From Candidatus Hermodarchaeota archaeon (lineage in GTDB: Archaea > Asgardarchaeota > Hermodarchaeia > Hermodarchaeales > Hermodarchaeaceae): DNA of 10,403 nucleotides. The stretch is taken from contig JAEOUH010000030.1 in assembly GCA_016839365.1 (NCBI GenBank), forward strand, positions 1-10,403. Reading direction: 5' to 3'. Positions 3 through 8,630 of this stretch are shown here, piece after piece; the stretch's first letter is position 1; each line of letters opens with the position of its first letter. The position numbers and the translations under genes are program-made. The notes below the pieces were generated by a model, which did no database searches, was not told the origin of the DNA, and worked only from the letters and a program-made list of their open reading frames with translations.

Positions 3-1655
3 AAAATCGACGAGAAAAATCTTGAAATTATTTCCCGCATTGTACAGCAACTAGCTCAGCGACCCAAGGAAACTTTGAGTGATTCAGCACAACACCTTAT
101 GGAGAAAAGTCACAAACTCAACGAACAACTATATTTCCAAACCAAAGACACCCAGATTCGCGCCCAGCTCGCCCTGCAACTCTTGCTTTCAAAGGTCTCC
201 CCCGATCCTTCAGGTAAGGTGATCATGACCTTTCCTACCAAAGATTTGGACAAACTCGAAGATTATGCGACAACAGCAATGCTGGCCCAAGTCAAAGGTC
301 GACAACAAGTAAAAGCCTTGAAAGCGGGATCATTGCTGGTCTGGATTCTTTTACAACACTTAAGTGAAGTCACAGAGAGCAGAGAGATGCAAAAACTGAG
401 AGATGATGCACGAGAGTTTGCAGAACAGACTTTCACGTTTATGCCACCATCAAACGAGTTGACCAGCGAATCGTTCCCCTTTGCCTTCCTCTTACTCCGC
501 AATGTTAACGCCTTAGCCTACGAAGAGCACCCCGCTGAGGAGACGCAATGGGAACAGCTGCTAACACAAAGTGAACAACTCGCCCAAACTCTAGCCAAAG
601 CTGCAGCGGTAAAAGGCGACACGCGAAACGAGATTCTAGCCCTAAGTGCTGCAGGAACTGCCACAGCCAAACTTGCCACGCTTACCGCCGACCGCAGTTC
701 ACAAACCCGTTTGCTCCGAAGAGCAGCTACCCAGTTACAAAAAGCGCTCAAAGTTGTGACCAGCGACAGGGATTCTACAGATATTGAGGCTGTTTTGTCT
801 GAATATACTCAGCTCATGCGTGCCCGCTTATCAGTAACCCCAGCCCTCTCTGCACAAATTCCGATATTTAAAGATTGGAGTCAAACGTATAAGGATGGGA
901 TTAATGCTCTCCAAAGTAGAGATGCTGAAGATGCCGCGAATAGGCTACAAGCCTCACTGATACTCAACGTGGAGGTCCCGCTCACCTTCACACTTCTTAG
1001 TGAAGGTAAAGCAAGCCTTGATTCGGTTCGACGCCAACTGACAGATATGCTCCGTGAAGCCAGTCAAATCGGATTTAAGGACCAAGCAGAGTTAGCACAA
1101 CGGCTAGAACGGCGTTGGGCCTTCCAATTAGGTGATGACTCATTATTAGATGCAGGATATCGCCTCGAAGATGGTGAGACTGGATTCACGTTAGCTGATG
1201 AGCATTTTCGGATCAGTCTTCAGGTTGAGCTTGAGGTAGCGATCGACGGTCATGTATTACAAAAAATTGAAACCTTTCCGTATCTTCGTCCCTCAACCAA
1301 GACCACCGATTTGGTCTGGTACGACATGACTCCCATATTGTCAAGTACTTATGAAGGTGACCAGCTTCAGACATGGCTTACCCTTCTTAACCCTAGCGAA
1401 AACAGTGTTTCCATTGGGTTTTGGCTAGTACCCTCCAAGAACACCACGGCTAATATTACTTTACAGATTCTAGGCACCGAAGCTATGTCTCAAAGTGCAG
1501 AGGGGGTCATGATACAGCTTACTGGCTCTCAGTTGGAAATACCGCGACAACCATCAGTTGCTGAACGACGGGATACGAGGGGAATTCTGATCTACGAGCC
1601 GAAACTCACAGCAGGATTTCCTGATATCATTCGATTGAATTTACGAATTGCTTAG
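3..1655 (+). CDS. Large hypothetical protein, 5'-truncated by the window edge; helical (TPR/solenoid-like) N-terminal part and beta-rich C-terminal domain
   Basis: The frame of the 75..1655 ORF is open back to base 3 (KIDEKNLEIISRIVQQLAQRPKET-LSDSAQ...), so the TTG at 75 is probably not the true start. The N-terminal ~350 aa is L/A/Q/E-rich amphipathic helix. The last ~170 aa shows alternating hydrophobic beta-strand patterns. Ends at TAG 1653-1655. Confidence 0.85.
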   Translation, partial: KIDEKNLEIISRIVQQLAQRPKETLSDSAQHLMEKSHKLNEQLYFQTKDTQIRAQLALQLLLSKVSPDPSGKVIMTFPTKDLDKLEDYATTAMLAQVKGRQQVKALKAGSLLVWILLQHLSEVTESREMQKLRDDAREFAEQTFTFMPPSNELTSESFPFAFLLLRNVNALAYEEHPAEETQWEQLLTQSEQLAQTLAKAAAVKGDTRNEILALSAAGTATAKLATLTADRSSQTRLLRRAATQLQKALKVVTSDRDSTDIEAVLSEYTQLMRARLSVTPALSAQIPIFKDWSQTYKDGINALQSRDAEDAANRLQASLILNVEVPLTFTLLSEGKASLDSVRRQLTDMLREASQIGFKDQAELAQRLERRWAFQLGDDSLLDAGYRLEDGETGFTLADEHFRISLQVELEVAIDGHVLQKIETFPYLRPSTKTTDLVWYDMTPILSSTYEGDQLQTWLTLLNPSENSVSIGFWLVPSKNTTANITLQILGTEAMSQSAEGVMIQLTGSQLEIPRQPSVAERRDTRGILIYEPKLTAGFPDIIRLNLRIA

Positions 1656-1664
1656 CATCAATAG

Positions 1665-1669
1665 TTTTT
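1665..1669 (+). terminator. Possible archaeal oligo-T terminator for the upstream + strand gene
   Basis: TTTTT 10 nt after the stop codon, in a 12-nt convergent spacer. Confidence 0.3.
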
Positions 1670-2288
1670 AGAGCCCAAGTGGTAGACCCCAGAGAACCCA
1701 ATAGACCACTGCTGTTACAAGAATAGCAATAAGGATTCCAGCCAGCAGCTGCGATAGTGAATGCAGTTTTAGCTTCCAGCGAGCCCATGCCACAAGAACT
1801 GCTAAGAGCATGAAGGGTAGGAAAAAGAGACCATACACCCAAATCAATCCAGTAATCGGTCCAGCGACACCCGCGCTATGCGCTGAAACTTTCCAATAAA
1901 GACTCACAAGGCCAATTACTGATGTCACTCCAGCGTACGCGATTGCAATGACAGCCAAAGCATGATTGTGGAAAATCCAGGCAATTAGTGCCCCACTAAA
2001 ATAGATGATGATAGCAGCCAGATAAAGTAGGGGTCGGTCACGACGATTTTTTACATCGAATGTCATTTTTCCGCGCGCAACCATTAACGCGACTGGAAGG
2101 ATGGGACCGATGACGACAAAGATGATTCCAATGATGAAAGATTGCCACGGTTGTATTAACCCGGTTCCAATAGGCGAATAGAAAGCCAAAACAGTAACTG
2201 CGCCCATGGCAATTAGGGGCGGTGATAGAAGATTTGAGAGTACTCGAGCTATGCGGATAGAAATTATTGAATTGTCTAGCTGAGTCAT
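1668..2288 (-). CDS. PAP2/acid-phosphatase superfamily integral membrane protein (divergent motifs)
   Basis: About 6-7 hydrophobic helices. Motifs KNRRDRP (C1-like), KVSAH (C2-like) and ARWKLKLHSLSQ (C3-like SRxxxxxHxxxD/Q). AGGTGAT SD at 2292-2298. Confidence 0.75.
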   Translation of the reverse strand: MTQLDNSIISIRIARVLSNLLSPPLIAMGAVTVLAFYSPIGTGLIQPWQSFIIGIIFVVIGPILPVALMVARGKMTFDVKNRRDRPLLYLAAIIIYFSGALIAWIFHNHALAVIAIAYAGVTSVIGLVSLYWKVSAHSAGVAGPITGLIWVYGLFFLPFMLLAVLVAWARWKLKLHSLSQLLAGILIAILVTAVVYWVLWGLPLGL

Positions 2289-2318: not shown

Positions 2319-4106
2319 TTAGAGATTCAATTGTTTGAGACAGGATTTCGTTGGTTGACCAGTCTTATCCCATCCACGAAGGCGATAATATTCAGGAAGC
2401 ATCTCCTCAAGATGGGAAACTCGGTTACGAGATCCTCCTTCAGGTAATGGGGTGGAGAAACGTGGAGGGAGGCAGTCATCTTTCGCTGAAAAACCTTCTC
2501 GAATATTGAATAACCGTTCGAGAGTCCAGATTCTCTCGCCAATTTTAAGGAACTCTTTACCAGATATTGTGAGCGAGGTGGCAGCTGAGAGTAGATCAGC
2601 ATAATCTTCCACGCTAAAAGCGAAGGTGGTAAATCGGCATAGAACAAGCGAATCCATTGCCGCGGAGAGATTTTGAAACAGAATCACAAGTCCGGCCTTT
2701 CCCTCAACACGATCGCGATCGACAAGGACGGGTGATCCCAATATCTCAGGTCCTATAAGATAGGCCCGTAAATGGCACCCTCCCCGGTTGGAGGTGGCAT
2801 AAGCTAGAGCGTGTCCTTGAACCCCCCTGGGATCGTAAGCAGGCATTTCTAATCCCTTCACCTGCATTGCTAGTTGGGGTGCGTTATACCGGGTAGCTAA
2901 AGCTTTGGAACCTTGTCCAAGTTCCTTTCCCAATCCACGAACATGGGCTATATCATCGATGAGGTTGAGCAACTCTGCAGTTTTTCCAAATTCATGTGTA
3001 GATTGGAGGTAGCCTTTCTGCATAAGCTCCATCGCACATCCAATGGTGCTGCCTACTGAAATCGTGTCTAGACCTAGCTCATTACACCGATGATTAGCAG
3101 TGGTAATCCATTCGAGATTATTGATTCCACACTGAGGTCCTAAAGCCCAAATAGTCTCATACTCAGGGCCACCTACTTCAGTTCCTTGAACTTGAGAGAT
3201 TCTGCCACAGCCAATTGGACAACCGAAGCAATGGTACCGCTTGGTGAAGAACCGTTCAAGCAGCTTCTCTCCAGAAACGCCTTCGGCATCGTTAAAGGTT
3301 CCCTCTTGGAAGTTGTATGTTGGTAGCATCCCGTATTCATTAATGAGGTTGACTAGCACTGCGGTCCCATATACGGGTAAAGAATTGTTCGTGATAGAAT
3401 CTTTCTTGATAAGGCGACGTGTGCGGTTAACGACGAGATCGAGTTTTTCAGGATCATTTATTGAGATTTGTTTTGTGCCATGAATTACGATGGCCTTCAG
3501 ATGCTTTGCACCCATGACGGCCCCCACACCACCACGACCTGCAGCGCGATGCTTGTCATTCATGATTGCGGCAAGGCTGACCCGATTTTCTCCCCCAGGA
3601 CCGATGCATGCCACTTGGGCTTTGGCATTAGTTTCATCAAGAAGATAATCGGTGGAGGAACTTACCTCTTGACCCCAGACATCCTTCGCTGACCGAAATT
3701 CAACGTCTCCGTCATTAATCCAGAGATAAGTTGGTGATTTTGCACGCCCTTGGAGAACCAAAGCAGCATAGCCCGCCCGGCGGAGCTGTGGACCAAAGTG
3801 TCCTCCACAGTTGGAGTCAAAAATCGTACCAGTTAATGGTGATTTGGTGATTACGGCGACCCGCCCTCCCGTTGGTGCAGATGATGCTGTAAGGGGACCA
3901 ATGGCAAACACCAGAAGATTTTCAGGGGCTAGCGGAGAAATGGCGGGGATTACTTGATCATAGACTAGTTTTACGCCTAGACCACGACCACCTAGATAGT
4001 AGGTAAAAAGCTCAGGTGTGAGTTCTTGTTGTTTCACCGTTTGGTTAGTAAGTGAAATTCGAAGCAGTTTTGTGTCAGAATAGGATTGACTGACCTCATC
4101 TGTCAT
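2319..4106 (-). CDS. aor: Tungsten-containing aldehyde:ferredoxin oxidoreductase (AOR family)
   Basis: 595 aa with AOR-family motifs: YLGGRGLG, KSPLTG...SNCGG, RAAGRGGVGAVMGAKHLKAI, [4Fe-4S] ligands CFGCPIGC plus DSLVLC, pterin-binding GPEYET and LGLDTIS, YDPRG..G.ALAYATSNRGGCH, GERIWTLERLFNIREG, YYRLRGWD..G.P. Confidence 0.96.
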   Translation of the reverse strand: MTDEVSQSYSDTKLLRISLTNQTVKQQELTPELFTYYLGGRGLGVKLVYDQVIPAISPLAPENLLVFAIGPLTASSAPTGGRVAVITKSPLTGTIFDSNCGGHFGPQLRRAGYAALVLQGRAKSPTYLWINDGDVEFRSAKDVWGQEVSSSTDYLLDETNAKAQVACIGPGGENRVSLAAIMNDKHRAAGRGGVGAVMGAKHLKAIVIHGTKQISINDPEKLDLVVNRTRRLIKKDSITNNSLPVYGTAVLVNLINEYGMLPTYNFQEGTFNDAEGVSGEKLLERFFTKRYHCFGCPIGCGRISQVQGTEVGGPEYETIWALGPQCGINNLEWITTANHRCNELGLDTISVGSTIGCAMELMQKGYLQSTHEFGKTAELLNLIDDIAHVRGLGKELGQGSKALATRYNAPQLAMQVKGLEMPAYDPRGVQGHALAYATSNRGGCHLRAYLIGPEILGSPVLVDRDRVEGKAGLVILFQNLSAAMDSLVLCRFTTFAFSVEDYADLLSAATSLTISGKEFLKIGERIWTLERLFNIREGFSAKDDCLPPRFSTPLPEGGSRNRVSHLEEMLPEYYRLRGWDKTGQPTKSCLKQLNL

Positions 4107-4112
4107 TTGATT

Positions 4113-4120
4113 CTCCTCCT
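4113..4120 (-). promoter_or_regulatory. Shine-Dalgarno site (AGGAGGAG) of aor, overlapping the deoC stop codon
   Basis: Minus strand reads gatTAGGAGGAGaatcaaATG, consistent with translational coupling of deoC and aor. Confidence 0.8.
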
Positions 4121-4940
4121 AATCATTGAAGACGTTTTGGTCACGGTGGGGACAGGTAACGCAGCGTTGTTTGTACCAAAGATACACTTCTTTGGGTTGT
4201 TTCCCCAAGCTAGCCTGCCGACTTGGACAAGTCCAACAGGGTTTGTCAGGCTCAAGGAAGGTGTCACTGTATCCTGCCCAACGGAACCCTTCGACGATGG
4301 CAACGCCTGAGCTTGTGCCAAGGCGATTTGCACCAGCATCGATCATTCGCAATGCATCCTTGAAGCTGCGGATGCCACCTGCAGCTTTTACTCCCATATC
4401 CGGTCCTACCGTTTCACGCATCAGACGCACATCATACGGTGTTGCACCCATAGGTCCAAATCCAGTGGACGTTTTGACAAAGTGCGCACCAGCATCTTTG
4501 CAGATAAGACAAGCCTTCTGTTTCTCCTCATCAATTAGAAACCCTGTTTCAAGAATCACTTTCACTATCGCATCATCAGCGGCACTAACCACCGCCTTGA
4601 TATCAGATTGAACCAAATCATAGTTCTTGTCTTTTAGAGCACCTATGTTAATGACCATATCAACCTCGGTAGCGCCTTTTTGCACAGCCTGCTTTGTCTC
4701 AAAGGCTTTTACCTCCGAAAGGGTGGCACCCAAGGGAAAGCCAACAACCACACACACATCTACCGATGAGTTCTTCAATAAGTCGATGGCATATTCAACG
4801 TGAACGGGATTGATGCACACCGTAGCAAACTCGTAAGCTAGGGCTTCTTCACATAGTTCTAAAATCTTTGCCCGTTTAGTTTCTGGCTTGAGTCGTGTAT
4901 GATCAATGAATTTGACAAGCTCTTCTACGGTCAATGACAT
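4119..4940 (-). CDS. deoC: 2-deoxyribose-5-phosphate aldolase (DERA) with a Cys4 C-terminal extension
   Basis: [39 protein letters not shown], Schiff-base Lys in [16 protein letters not shown] and phosphate-binding RLGTSSG. A further 56 aa follow the core and contain CWTCP and CVTCP. Confidence 0.96.
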
Positions 4941-5086
4941 CGTGAATACCTCCTTTGGTTCTCATTTGTGCCCTCATTAAGGATAAACTTGTTTCTTCAT
5001 GAAAATGATGGGATTCCAAAGAACTTCTGCTGCCTGAATAAAGCTTATCTAATTCATTGGGCGAATTCGTGAGTAGGTGCCTGACC
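4941..5086. promoter_or_regulatory. Divergent promoter region between deoC-aor-PAP2 and the M42 peptidase gene
   Basis: 146-nt non-coding gap between head-to-head genes. TATA-like candidates: minus TTTATCC (4982-4988) after purine-rich GAAACAAG; minus TTTATTC (5036-5042); plus CTTATCTA (5044-5051) after ATAAAG. Which boxes are functional cannot be determined from sequence. Confidence 0.55.
4948..4954 (-). promoter_or_regulatory. Shine-Dalgarno site (AGGAGGT) of deoC
   Basis: Minus strand reads aaAGGAGGTattcacgATG. Confidence 0.8.
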
Positions 5087-6971: not shown

Positions 6972-8630
6972 GTGAAAACGGATTTTAAGCTCGACCAACT
7001 GCTTGCAAACGGCGAAACCCGAAACACCGAATTTAAGCGCATGCTAGCTTCAAAAGATGGAGTAGGAGACCGTCGAGCGAAGCTTATTGCACAATTGAAA
7101 TTAATAACAAGCGAGGGGCCTGGTCAATTCGTGGTGGGAATTGAAGACATCCACGGTAAAAATTGGGAAGTCTATGGACTTACCGCTGAGGAAGTTGAAA
7201 ATAGCAAGACAGTTCTCAAAAAGCTCTGTAAAGAAGCAGGTATTGACATTTTAGAACAAACCCACTACAGCACAGACAAAGGGATTGTGGCCAGTTTCAC
7301 GGTGGCCCGAGTTATCACCCCCATGGTTCCTGAAACCGTGGGTATGAACTTAGTGGGCCGTGTCAACAGTGGAAAGACGACCCTTGCAGGAGTGCTCATT
7401 CAAGGCCAACTAGATAATGGAAGTGGGCAAGCAAGAGCTTTACTTTTGACTTATCCTCAAGAGCTGAAACGTGGTCAGACCGCGGACTTACATGTCGCTT
7501 TTGCCGCTATCAACAGGCAGGGTAAATTTATGGCAATGCAGGCACCACTAGACAAATCAAAACGGGCACGAATCCTCGATCAGGCCCATCGAATCATCAC
7601 CATCTTTGACGCTCCCGGCCACAAAGAATACGCCAAGACCATGATTCGGAGCGTCCTGGGAGCCTCTGCCCAATACAGCATGATTCTCGTGCCCTGCTTG
7701 GATGAATATAAACTCTCAGTAGCTGAAGTACAACGGAGCGGGATCCGCCGCCTCGATGACATTACTCGCGAACATCTGTTGCTGGTTTCCAACCAAGAAC
7801 TCCCGTTTGTGGTTGTCATCAACAAAGTCGACGATTGTGATGAACATCGACGAGACCATGTGCGAAACCTCGTTTTCGAAACCATTAAAGAAATCGGACA
7901 CGTACCGCTTCGCATTACCTCCGAAGATGATATCCCTATCATTTGCCGAGAAATCGCCCACCGAGTAATTGTCCCAGTATATGAAGTCAGCTGCGTCACG
8001 GGGGAAGGATTGGACCTCCTCCGAGAAACACTTGTTCAACTCCCCTCGCGCATACCTGATGAAAGGATAGAAAAACCTGCCTTCGCATATATCGACAAGG
8101 TATACAGGGGGATCCGGGGAACCAACATCGTCATCACGGGCACAGTCCAAGAGGGAATATTCAAACCAGGCCAATCCATTCTTACTGGTCCTGATAAAGA
8201 CGGCAGATTCATGCAGGGGAGGATAGGATCAATTGAAGTCTTTAAAAAGCGGGTGGAACGTGTGAAGGCAGGAGATGTCTTCGGATTTGATTTAAAGCGT
8301 CTCCCACCCGAAAAGATCCGTCGGGGCCAGATAATTTGCGACAAAGATGCAGACGTAAAAGCCGTCAACACCTTCGAATCCACCATTATTGTGACACGCC
8401 ACCCCACTCGCATTCGTCAAGGATATGAACCGGTGTTCCATTCTGCAACCATCCAACAGCCAGTAATTTATGAGCATATCTTTAACAAAGAGTACCTTGT
8501 TGTCGGCGATGTGGCCCGCGTTCGGATGGTATTCAAAAAAGGTCCTGAAATGCTTCGTATAGGAGATCGAATTGTAACACGCGAGGCTAACACCCGTTGT
8601 ATTGGTACAGTCACAAAACTGGTTCACTAA
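6972..8630 (+). CDS. GTPBP1/GTPBP2-like (archaeal GPBP) translational GTPase of the EF-Tu/SelB superfamily with an N-terminal AlbA_2/Schlafen-like domain
   Basis: N-domain GETRNTEFK...QLK...EGPG.FVVGIED..YGL resembles the GTPBP1/2 N-terminus. G1 GRVNSGKTT, LDNGSGQAR, G2 ELKRGQTAD, G3 DAPGH, TREH, G4 NKVD, G5 SCVTGEG. Domain II (IDKVY..IRGT..V.GTV) and domain III (HPTRIRQGYEPVFH) are present. GTG start. Confidence 0.9.
   Translation: MKTDFKLDQLLANGETRNTEFKRMLASKDGVGDRRAKLIAQLKLITSEGPGQFVVGIEDIHGKNWEVYGLTAEEVENSKTVLKKLCKEAGIDILEQTHYSTDKGIVASFTVARVITPMVPETVGMNLVGRVNSGKTTLAGVLIQGQLDNGSGQARALLLTYPQELKRGQTADLHVAFAAINRQGKFMAMQAPLDKSKRARILDQAHRIITIFDAPGHKEYAKTMIRSVLGASAQYSMILVPCLDEYKLSVAEVQRSGIRRLDDITREHLLLVSNQELPFVVVINKVDDCDEHRRDHVRNLVFETIKEIGHVPLRITSEDDIPIICREIAHRVIVPVYEVSCVTGEGLDLLRETLVQLPSRIPDERIEKPAFAYIDKVYRGIRGTNIVITGTVQEGIFKPGQSILTGPDKDGRFMQGRIGSIEVFKKRVERVKAGDVFGFDLKRLPPEKIRRGQIICDKDADVKAVNTFESTIIVTRHPTRIRQGYEPVFHSATIQQPVIYEHIFNKEYLVVGDVARVRMVFKKGPEMLRIGDRIVTREANTRCIGTVTKLVH

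Follow-up and report, generated by a model that had tools for sequence, protein, structure and literature searches.

A deoC-aor gene pair of Asgard archaea and anaerobic bacteria as a probable route from deoxyribose to acetate and reduced ferredoxin

The window analyzed here, the whole 10,403-nucleotide stretch of contig JAEOUH010000030.1, belongs to a Hermodarchaeota (Asgard) metagenome-assembled genome that is 84% complete and 2.2 Mb in size. It carries, on the minus strand, a gene for deoxyribose-phosphate aldolase followed directly by one for an aldehyde:ferredoxin oxidoreductase, with the following features.

4941..5056, minus strand: 116-nt region upstream of deoC, the presumed promoter, shared with a divergent M42 peptidase gene
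4119..4940, minus strand: deoC, deoxyribose-phosphate aldolase (DERA), a short bacterial-type barrel with a C-terminal tail (273 amino acids; TIGR00126)
4122..4274, minus strand: C-terminal tail of DERA, amino acids ~223 to 273, a presumed Zn-type metal-binding mini-domain (invariant residues, AF2)
4104..4121, minus strand: deoC-aor junction, consisting of TAG, an overlapping AGGAGG, a 12-nt spacer and the aor ATG in a single reading frame
2319..4106, minus strand: aor, aldehyde:ferredoxin oxidoreductase of the AOR type proper, from a deoC-linked orthologue group (595 amino acids; AFOR_N and AFOR_C)
1668..2288, minus strand: weak PAP2-like gene of 206 amino acids, 30 nt downstream of aor and with its own AGGTGA (PF01569 at 19.4 bits, below the cut-off)

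An earlier note on this DNA had placed the start of aor 12 nt past the deoC stop, with its Shine-Dalgarno sequence lying over that stop, and both statements hold on the minus strand. The junction reads ...AAT GAT TAG GAG GAG AAT CAA ATG, in which the deoC stop TAG occupies positions 4121 to 4119, AGGAGG positions 4120 to 4115 and the aor ATG positions 4106 to 4104. A second such motif, AAGGAGG, stands 7 nt ahead of the deoC ATG, and TAGGAGG...ATG junctions of 11 to 12 nt also occur at Hermodarchaeota and Thorarchaeota loci. This arrangement suggests that deoC and aor are co-transcribed and translationally coupled, and the 116-nt upstream region may function as their promoter.

The deoC product scored 294.9 bits against the curated equivalog TIGR00126, for which the cut-off is 117.3. 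Its Asp94, Lys156 and Lys185 align with Asp102, Lys167 (the Schiff-base lysine) and Lys201 of Escherichia coli DERA and were invariant across 56 DERAs that share the C-terminal tail. In the AF2 model (pLDDT 93.5; pTM 0.91), the (beta/alpha)8 barrel superposes on solved DERAs, with a match to 3ngj at Z 38.7 and an rmsd of 0.9 Å over 220 aligned residues (residues 1 to 220). As claimed previously, the motif ATVCINP holds the counterpart of E. coli Cys47, here Cys42; the equivalent residue is also found in ordinary short DERAs (5dbu and 6d33), and it is therefore nothing special to the deoC-aor context.

The protein also carries a feature absent from the earlier note, a four-Cys (CxxC...CxxC) extension of ~50 amino acids past the end of the family model at amino acid 216. 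Its motif is W..PCxxCPSR...K.PK.VY.YK.(K/R)CxxC....NxFx(D/E)-COOH, and Cys235, Cys238, Arg241, Lys257, Cys260, Cys263 and Asn269 were invariant among the 56 tailed DERAs, a pattern that suggests a bound metal, presumably of Zn type. A Pfam search of the tail returned nothing at E<=10, and none of the solved DERAs aligns past residue ~228, leaving residues 229 to 273 without a counterpart in the structures listed. A profile of the tail searched against 1.84 billion representatives matched solely DERA C-termini and fragments, and all Atlas structure matches for it fell under TM 0.5. The tailed proteins appear to make up a DERA subfamily not described before, marked by a metal-type tail, which may act as a metal-stabilized lid or as a contact to AOR. 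In a full-text literature search, no article described either the deoC-aor gene pair or the DERA tail.

The aor product contains AFOR_N (263.7 bits) and AFOR_C (476.8 bits). The earlier note had left its place within the family between AOR and GAPOR, FOR or WOR, and bit scores against solved structures and family models identify it as the AOR type proper and not GAPOR or FOR. The best solved match was Pyrococcus furiosus AOR (1AOR, full-length alignment, 615 bits), compared with 334 bits for FOR, 213 for WOR5 and 200 for BamB. Cys293, Cys296, Cys300, Cys490, Glu317, His445 and Asp485 align with identical residues of the P. furiosus enzyme (Cys288, Cys291, Cys295, Cys494, Glu313, His448 and Asp489), and the four [4Fe-4S] cysteine ligands and the Glu, His and Asp active-site residues were invariant in 17 paired sequences. 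The first DxxGLD motif has Asn in place of its first Asp in all linked AORs, which form one clade (SH-aLRT 97) and share 32 to 38% identity with the eight other paralogues of the genome. The E. coli YdhV-type AOR equivalog NF007354 was rejected as an identity, the match (217 bits against a cut-off of 868) being to the N-terminal domain only.

The enzyme belongs with the AOR-type tungsto/molybdopterin enzymes and is predicted to bind a tungsto-bis-pyranopterin and to take acetaldehyde as its substrate. Substrate specificity cannot be read from sequence in the AOR family, and DERA releases two aldehydes, so that the partner might instead act on glyceraldehyde-3-phosphate in the manner of GAPOR, on free glyceraldehyde or on open-chain deoxyribose(-5-phosphate). 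However, the GAPOR model NF040818 gave 54.7 bits where its cut-off demands 1300, and the closest solved relatives are broad-range AORs (1AOR, 9mqx, 9g7j and 8c0z), with FOR and WOR5 far behind. We consider another pathway aldehyde improbable as the substrate.

The host genome holds one deoC and nine AOR paralogues, and by our own rough estimate the chance of an AOR being the next gene on the same strand is ~0.4%. The earlier note had staked its reading on the adjacency being kept in relatives, and a survey found it conserved over three Asgard families. The pair is retained in 12 genomes of the host genus, in 52 of the 56 Thorarchaeota genomes holding the AOR orthologue (about 10 genera; in the other 4 it is split at contig ends) and in 7 genomes of a third family, f21. 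Tail-less DERAs are found in the sister genus g2 and in the Thorarchaeota genera g23, g30, g33, g45, g46 and g50, and in all of these the AOR orthologue is missing at a threshold of E<=1e-150. Inheritance of the tail goes hand in hand with that of the AOR.

Metagenome loci were collected by a 45-letter tail motif. Among the 101 tail-bearing DERA loci whose downstream sequence ran to 500 nt or more, AOR was directly next in 95 (94%), and 102 of the 114 pairs had a deoC-aor gap between −8 and +15 nt, although these proportions are not independent counts because the loci were selected by the tail motif and many in the sample are related. In a control set, AOR was found within 6 kb of a tail-less DERA in 0 of 77 loci. 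The metagenome pairs include several bacterial clades with GC contents from 35% to 65%, assigned to Bacteria from one NCBI name (Cloacimonetes), a 73% bacterial Atlas cluster and neighboring genes for a hybrid histidine kinase and for a protein bearing a T9SS sorting domain. In one bacterial clade the pair lies within a nucleoside-catabolic operon of classical type, cdd-deoC-aor-pdp-unknown-nupC, of which 40 loci carried cdd, 28 pdp and 10 nupC, and in a low-GC bacterial clade thyX follows aor. The presence of cdd, pdp and NupC around the pair gives direct contextual support for a role in nucleoside and deoxyribose catabolism.

It might be argued that deoC and aor are neighbors without a functional link, since the whole 10-kb neighborhood is syntenic in the host genus and the 12 genomes therefore count as one case. 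However, the Thorarchaeota and f21 loci share with the host locus the pair alone, with unrelated flanking genes, and the bacterial clades hold it in further unrelated contexts. Because the pair is conserved across these lineages, a chance neighborhood is ruled out, and we regard the absence of any functional link as exceedingly improbable.

We propose that deoC-aor is probably a dedicated two-gene module for degrading deoxyribose-5-phosphate (dR5P) derived from (deoxy)nucleosides. DERA would cleave dR5P into glyceraldehyde-3-phosphate, which would enter glycolysis, and acetaldehyde, which the partner AOR would oxidize irreversibly to acetate with the reduction of ferredoxin. The recurrence of the pair in many archaea and bacteria makes it very probable that this route, which leads from deoxyribose to acetate and reduced ferredoxin, is a fixed one. 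The earlier note had put forward the same route from deoxynucleosides, and the conserved adjacency, the nucleoside operon context in bacteria and the identity of the enzyme as AOR proper all speak for it. The oxidation would clear a toxic product that inactivates DERA; crotonaldehyde derived from acetaldehyde cross-links Lys167 and Cys47 in E. coli numbering (PMC8403123, PMC6016325). It would also pull the cleavage forward, since the DERA equilibrium lies toward dR5P with K = 5000 M-1 (PMC8403123). That AORs might oxidize the acetaldehyde from DERA has been raised as a passing suggestion only (PMC9324843).

The same equilibrium favors synthesis, and the module could in principle run in reverse, with AOR reducing acetate to acetaldehyde by means of low-potential ferredoxin and DERA joining this to glyceraldehyde-3-phosphate to build dR5P for deoxynucleoside synthesis independent of ribonucleotide reductase. 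The AORs of acetogens reduce acids, the reaction of pdp is reversible, and thyX after aor in the low-GC clade would fit such a direction. However, the host genome carries both class II and class III ribonucleotide reductases, and the cdd gene and NupC importer of the bacterial operons resemble those of catabolic operons of the dra-nupC-pdp type. These points make the synthetic direction highly improbable.

The rest of the host genome offers points both for and against the catabolic module. Genes for nucleoside phosphorylases and related enzymes, whose presence the earlier note had made a check on its reading, were found (AMP phosphorylase, MTAP and a Udp/DeoD-like phosphorylase), together with cdd and three mutases of the PGM/PMM type. 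The corresponding expectations of a phosphopentomutase and of tungstate uptake were not borne out in this 84%-complete genome. Bacterial DeoB was not found, leaving the three PGM/PMM paralogues as candidates at most, and MoaC, MoeA (MoeA_N), WtpA and the TupA type (PBP_like_2) were not found either, which leaves the nine AORs of this genome without an apparent source of their pterin cofactor. These absences count against the module, as does the lack of linkage in the host genome between the pair and other nucleoside genes.

A further question is what the tail contributes. It is possible that it docks DERA onto AOR such that acetaldehyde passes from active site to active site and is never free, an extension that is compatible with the two-gene module, the pair having then passed between Asgard archaea and anaerobic bacteria by transfer. 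The joint inheritance of tail and AOR across archaea and bacteria would fit such a clamp, and genes that overlap or lie 12 nt apart point to equimolar production of the two proteins. In addition, the tails of AOR-adjoining DERAs end in N-x-F-x-(D/E)-COOH, whereas those of six unlinked metagenome loci and of unlinked Asgard lineages end otherwise. On the other side, the in-frame read-through DERA-QEENQ-AOR was modeled with AF2 as a pseudo-fusion (a monomer with a short linker, from an 82-row block alignment with 17 paired rows, read by pTM and pLDDT). It reached pTM 0.68, and docking was not confident because the pLDDT of the tail fell to 65 to 81. Fusions such as PNP-DERA and DeoB-DERA, among others, were present among the best 120 longer relatives, and a fusion of a tailed DERA to AOR was absent from the same set. 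We therefore advance the clamp only tentatively. If correct, it would be the first case of channeling between an aldolase and a tungstoenzyme, in a complex analogous to DmpG-DmpF, and would make this clade the first in the AOR family whose physiological substrate is defined and hard-wired.

Alternatively, the tail may act inside DERA, as a metal-stabilized lid that brings the conserved C-terminal Phe/Tyr into the enzyme's own active site or as an oligomerization element, with no contact to AOR. In the model of DERA alone, the tail folds against the barrel with pLDDT 80 to 92 and the last three residues alone are flexible. E. coli DERA offers a precedent in Tyr259, a C-terminal residue able to reach into its active site (Schulte 2018, as cited in PMC8403123). 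The Asgard lineages f8, f14 and f5 have four-Cys tails without an adjacent AOR, which is consistent with an internal role and counts against the module. However, a role confined to DERA leaves unexplained why the tail is nearly restricted to loci followed by the dedicated AOR and why that AOR is absent from the genera with tail-less DERAs, and we think it rather unlikely.

Several known systems can be compared with the proposed module. Classical deo operons (E. coli deoCABD and Bacillus dra-nupC-pdp) encode a DERA that shares its family and catalytic residues with the one described here, and their companions cdd, pyrimidine-nucleoside phosphorylase and NupC recur in the bacterial relatives of the module, but they have no AOR and their DERA lacks the four-Cys tail. 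In those operons acetaldehyde passes to acylating dehydrogenases or AdhE. P. furiosus AOR is viewed as scavenging a broad range of aldehydes that arise in amino acid fermentation, whereas here one orthologue group appears to be wired to a single aldehyde-producing enzyme. The pairs DmpG-DmpF, BphI-BphJ and HsaF-HsaG (4lrs, 1NVM) likewise place the gene for an acetaldehyde-releasing aldolase beside that for its oxidizer. There, however, the aldolase is a class II metal enzyme and the oxidizer an NAD+/CoA-dependent acylating dehydrogenase yielding acetyl-CoA, whereas the deoC partner is an AFOR-family enzyme; the tunnel and complex are proven for those pairs, while for deoC-aor they are a tentative proposal. 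Bacterial microcompartments that use sugar phosphates and contain DERA (Sutter 2021, as cited in PMC9324843) similarly answer the problem of acetaldehyde from DERA in the catabolism of DNA and deoxyribose; here a dedicated soluble AOR would take that role with no compartment. No BMC domain or shell gene was present among the ten open reading frames of the window. In these anaerobes, AOR would replace the acylating acetaldehyde dehydrogenase or the microcompartment of other systems.

Most physiological substrates of the AOR family are unknown, and Asgard archaea and other sediment anaerobes hold many paralogues. The module would give one AOR clade a specific job, that of clearing the acetaldehyde that DERA releases. 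On this view, extracellular DNA and nucleosides, which are plentiful in sediments, are predicted to be fermented to acetate, with the electrons of the aldehyde retained at the potential of ferredoxin. DERAs naturally coupled to acetaldehyde removal may also be of interest in biocatalysis, where the use of the enzyme is limited chiefly by its inactivation through acetaldehyde. Beyond the pair itself, the PAP2-like gene follows aor at loci L040, L041 and L137 to L139 and not at the Thorarchaeota or f21 loci; its conservation is limited to the genus, within which it is possibly co-transcribed with aor.

The window comprises the complete 10,403-bp contig (C88) of a metagenome-assembled genome (MAG; 84% complete, 2.2 Mb) whose phylum belongs to the Asgard archaea. 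Its relevant genes are as follows:

4940..4119, minus strand: deoC, encoding deoxyribose-phosphate aldolase (DERA), 273 aa
4106..2319, minus strand: aor, encoding aldehyde:ferredoxin oxidoreductase (AOR), 595 aa
1668-2288, minus strand: PAP2-like gene (weak match, membrane type), 30 nt past aor, with its own AGGTGA; synteny within the genus only
3-1655, plus strand: 550-aa protein with no family match, beyond the PAP2-like gene; synteny within the genus only
6972-8630, plus strand: EF-1alpha/SelB-like GTPase, 552 aa, with a ~120-aa N-terminal extension; conserved in the genus

The GTPase scored 125 bits against the EF-1alpha model, far under the cut-off of 502. The junction of the pair is as the earlier note had described it: the TAG stop of deoC is followed by 12 nt and the ATG of aor, with an AGGAGG overlapping the stop. 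The two genes also share a reading frame. The source genome encodes one deoC and nine AOR paralogues.

Against TIGR00126, the equivalog model for DERA (cut-off, 117.3), the deoC product scored 294.9 bits, and in the alignment its Cys42, Asp94, Lys156, and Lys185 correspond to E. coli Cys47, Asp102, Lys167, and Lys201, whose roles are set out in PMC8403123 and PMC6016325. An equivalent of Cys42 is found in ordinary short DERAs too, and it is therefore not a special adaptation. The TIGR00126 model stops at residue 216, and the protein runs about 55 residues further, which the earlier note had overlooked. This C-terminal tail carries the motif CxxCPSR...CxxC and a terminal N-x-F-x-D; the four Cys do not vary among 56 tailed DERAs, nor do Arg241, Lys257, and Asn269. 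Pfam gave no match to the tail even at E<=10, none of the solved DERA structures aligns past residue ~228, and a tail profile run against 1.84 billion representative proteins matched only DERA C-termini and gene fragments. AlphaFold2 placed the tail of DERA alone as a small, mostly helical module against the barrel (pLDDT 80-92, pTM 0.91), with the final three residues flexible. The four-Cys pattern suggests that the tail may bind metal. At two loci of Asgard family f4 (L035 and L036), the DERA tails have none of the four Cys but retain a central KKQPK(E/D)VYDFY, and no AOR adjoins them.

Throughout the genus the entire neighborhood is syntenic (550-aa gene, PAP2-like gene, aor, deoC, M42 peptidase, HAD, and EF1A-like GTPase), and the genus genomes therefore count as a single case. 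The nearest named locus is that of "Candidatus Hermodarchaeota archaeon YT1_028" (DERA identity, 89%), and DERA relatives at 70-75% identity carry Thorarchaeota names. Judged by gene order, independent evidence from outside the genus confirms that the pairing exceeds chance. Among 301 Asgard genomes surveyed, 56 from Thorarchaeota, spanning about ten genera, encode an AOR that shares 65-69% identity with the aor product. In 52 of these 56, the AOR gene is the next one after deoC on a single contig, and in the remaining 4 both genes are located at contig ends. The arrangement recurs in seven genomes of a third Asgard family (f21), whose AORs share 52-54% identity with the aor product. None of the other window genes was found near the pair in Thorarchaeota and f21 loci, and the Thorarchaeota pair is flanked by a Hef-like helicase-nuclease and a PUA-PAPS-reductase protein. 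The DERAs of the sister genus (g2) and of Thorarchaeota genera g23, g30, g33, g45, g46, and g50 are tail-less (221-251 aa), and no AOR orthologue was found in these seven genera at E<=1e-150. Two f21 genomes encode a second, tail-less DERA that is preceded, within one protein, by a long N-terminal region: one of 1259 aa with a weak receiver domain and PPDK_N (PEP-utilising, ATP-binding) (L135:4645-8424, G219) and one of 477 aa whose 250-aa N-terminus has no assigned family (L136:4633-6066, G258).

To collect metagenome loci, the tail was expressed as a degenerate DNA motif of 45 letters; of the 120 loci returned, 111 encode DERA, and for 101 the downstream sequence extends 500 nt or more. An AOR immediately follows the tailed DERA in 95/101 (94%), a count that includes relatives and comes from loci selected via the tail, and so measures association rather than independent events. 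Of 114 pairs, 102 have an intergenic distance of -8 to +15 nt. The control set consisted of 77 loci with tail-less DERA, mainly from Bacillota, taken with 6-kb flanks; AOR was found in 0/77. The E. coli order is deoCABD.

The aor product has AFOR_N and AFOR_C domains, and its best solved relative is Pyrococcus furiosus AOR (1AOR, 615 bits), followed by 9mqx, 9g7j, and 8c0z; FOR (334 bits) and WOR5 (213 bits) were far behind. A GAPOR identity was rejected (54.7 bits against a model cut-off of 1300). All four [4Fe-4S] Cys and the equivalents of Glu313, His448, and Asp489 of the P. furiosus enzyme are kept and are invariant across 17 linked AORs, those encoded next to deoC. Asp338 of P. furiosus AOR, the first Asp of the first DxxGLD pterin motif, is replaced by Asn in 17/17 aligned linked AORs:

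about 3081-3083, minus strand: Asn 342 of the aor product, aligned with P. furiosus AOR Asp338

When the nine paralogues of the source genome were placed in a tree with 32 linked AORs, the latter formed a single clade (SH-aLRT 97) whose sister is an unlinked Asgard AOR (G025), and the other eight paralogues (32-38% identical) fell outside it. The Hermodarchaeota AORs are nested within the Thorarchaeota group (joint clade support, 100), and the Hermodarchaeota DERA is 70-75% identical to Thorarchaeota homologs versus 58-63% to that of the sister genus. Given these relationships, the pair probably moved by transfer as one unit, in either direction. In another genome of the genus (G006, L041:6834-8637), the AOR lies in two frames with a break near residue 240, either a frameshift or an assembly error.

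Docking of DERA onto AOR through the tail has circumstantial support. Tail and AOR are inherited together, and AOR-adjacent tails end in N-x-F-x-(D/E)-COOH, whereas those of six unlinked metagenome loci and of Asgard lineages f8, f14, and f5 end otherwise. However, no tailed-DERA::AOR fusion was present among the best 120 longer relatives, and folding the in-frame read-through with TAG read as Q (DERA-QEENQ-AOR, 873 aa; block alignment of 82 rows including 17 natural in-frame pairs) gave no confident docking (pTM 0.68; tail pLDDT 65-81, below that of DERA alone; linker disordered), a weak negative, given a network built for monomers, a short linker, and assessment by pTM and pLDDT alone. An equally simple alternative is that the tail forms an intramolecular lid within DERA; PMC8403123 describes how the C-terminal Tyr259 of E. 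coli DERA can enter the active site.

Apart from the pair, the source genome encodes an AMP phosphorylase (680 bits) and MTAP, both above cut-off, a Udp/DeoD-like phosphorylase under cut-offs, a cdd homologue, and three clustered PGM/PMM-type mutases. The archaeal phosphopentomutase is a member of the PGM/PMM family, and bacterial DeoB was not found in this 84%-complete MAG. It is plausible from this gene content that the steps upstream of DERA would be supplied by genes unlinked to the pair. The chemistry agrees with the proposed catabolic role. The couple acetate/acetaldehyde lies near -580 mV, making oxidation with ferredoxin essentially irreversible. The DERA equilibrium lies towards deoxyribose-5-phosphate (K = 5000 M-1), and crotonaldehyde derived from acetaldehyde cross-links Lys167 and Cys47 of the enzyme (PMC8403123, PMC6016325). 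Reversed, biosynthetic use of the module is unnecessary, since ribonucleotide reductases of class II and class III are both present. Four markers for the source of the tungsto/molybdopterin cofactor, MoaC, MoeA_N, WtpA, and PBP_like_2 (TupA type), were not found in the 84%-complete MAG despite its nine AORs.

The strongest functional evidence is the gene order in a bacterial-type clade of high GC (about 45 loci), whose DERA and a Cloacimonetes-named protein share ~70% identity. There, tailed deoC and then aor sit between the genes for cytidine deaminase and pyrimidine-nucleoside phosphorylase, and next come a conserved gene for a 339-aa protein and a convergent NupC nucleoside transporter gene; NCBIfam cut-offs were passed, and cdd was present at 40 loci, pdp at 28, and nupC at 10 (contig ends limit these counts). 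By its gene content, this cdd-deoC-aor-pdp operon is the classical nucleoside-catabolic set with an AOR placed where acetaldehyde needs handling. The comparative evidence supports the core reading of the earlier note, deoxyribose/deoxynucleoside catabolism via DERA and AOR: a nucleoside or deoxyribose breakdown route in which the AOR is dedicated and the DERA specialised, with predicted activities and co-transcription.

A full-text literature search for the pairing recovered no account of deoC next to aor or of a DERA with a tail. In the Hermodarchaeota paper, multiple AORs come up for amino-acid-derived aldehydes only (PMC8163825), and a single sentence in PMC9324843 suggests that AORs might oxidise DERA-derived acetaldehyde in Auribacterota.

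The gene between pdp and nupC (up to ~339 aa) is conserved at L190:11642-12661 and 18 other metagenome loci, had no Pfam or NCBIfam match, and occupies the spot where phosphopentomutase function would be expected. In a bacterial clade of low GC that has an FCB-type T9SS neighbor, a double ThyX follows aor, and at L170:6247-7785, L158:3006-4544, L155, and L214 this is a 512-aa protein with two Thy1 stretches directly downstream. Uncultured bacteria commonly encode natural fusions of DERA to purine-nucleoside phosphorylase (about 511 aa) or to phosphopentomutase (about 631 aa), and fusions to flavoprotein, RpiB, and TIM domains were found as well (P0176, P0180, P0234, P0258, and others).
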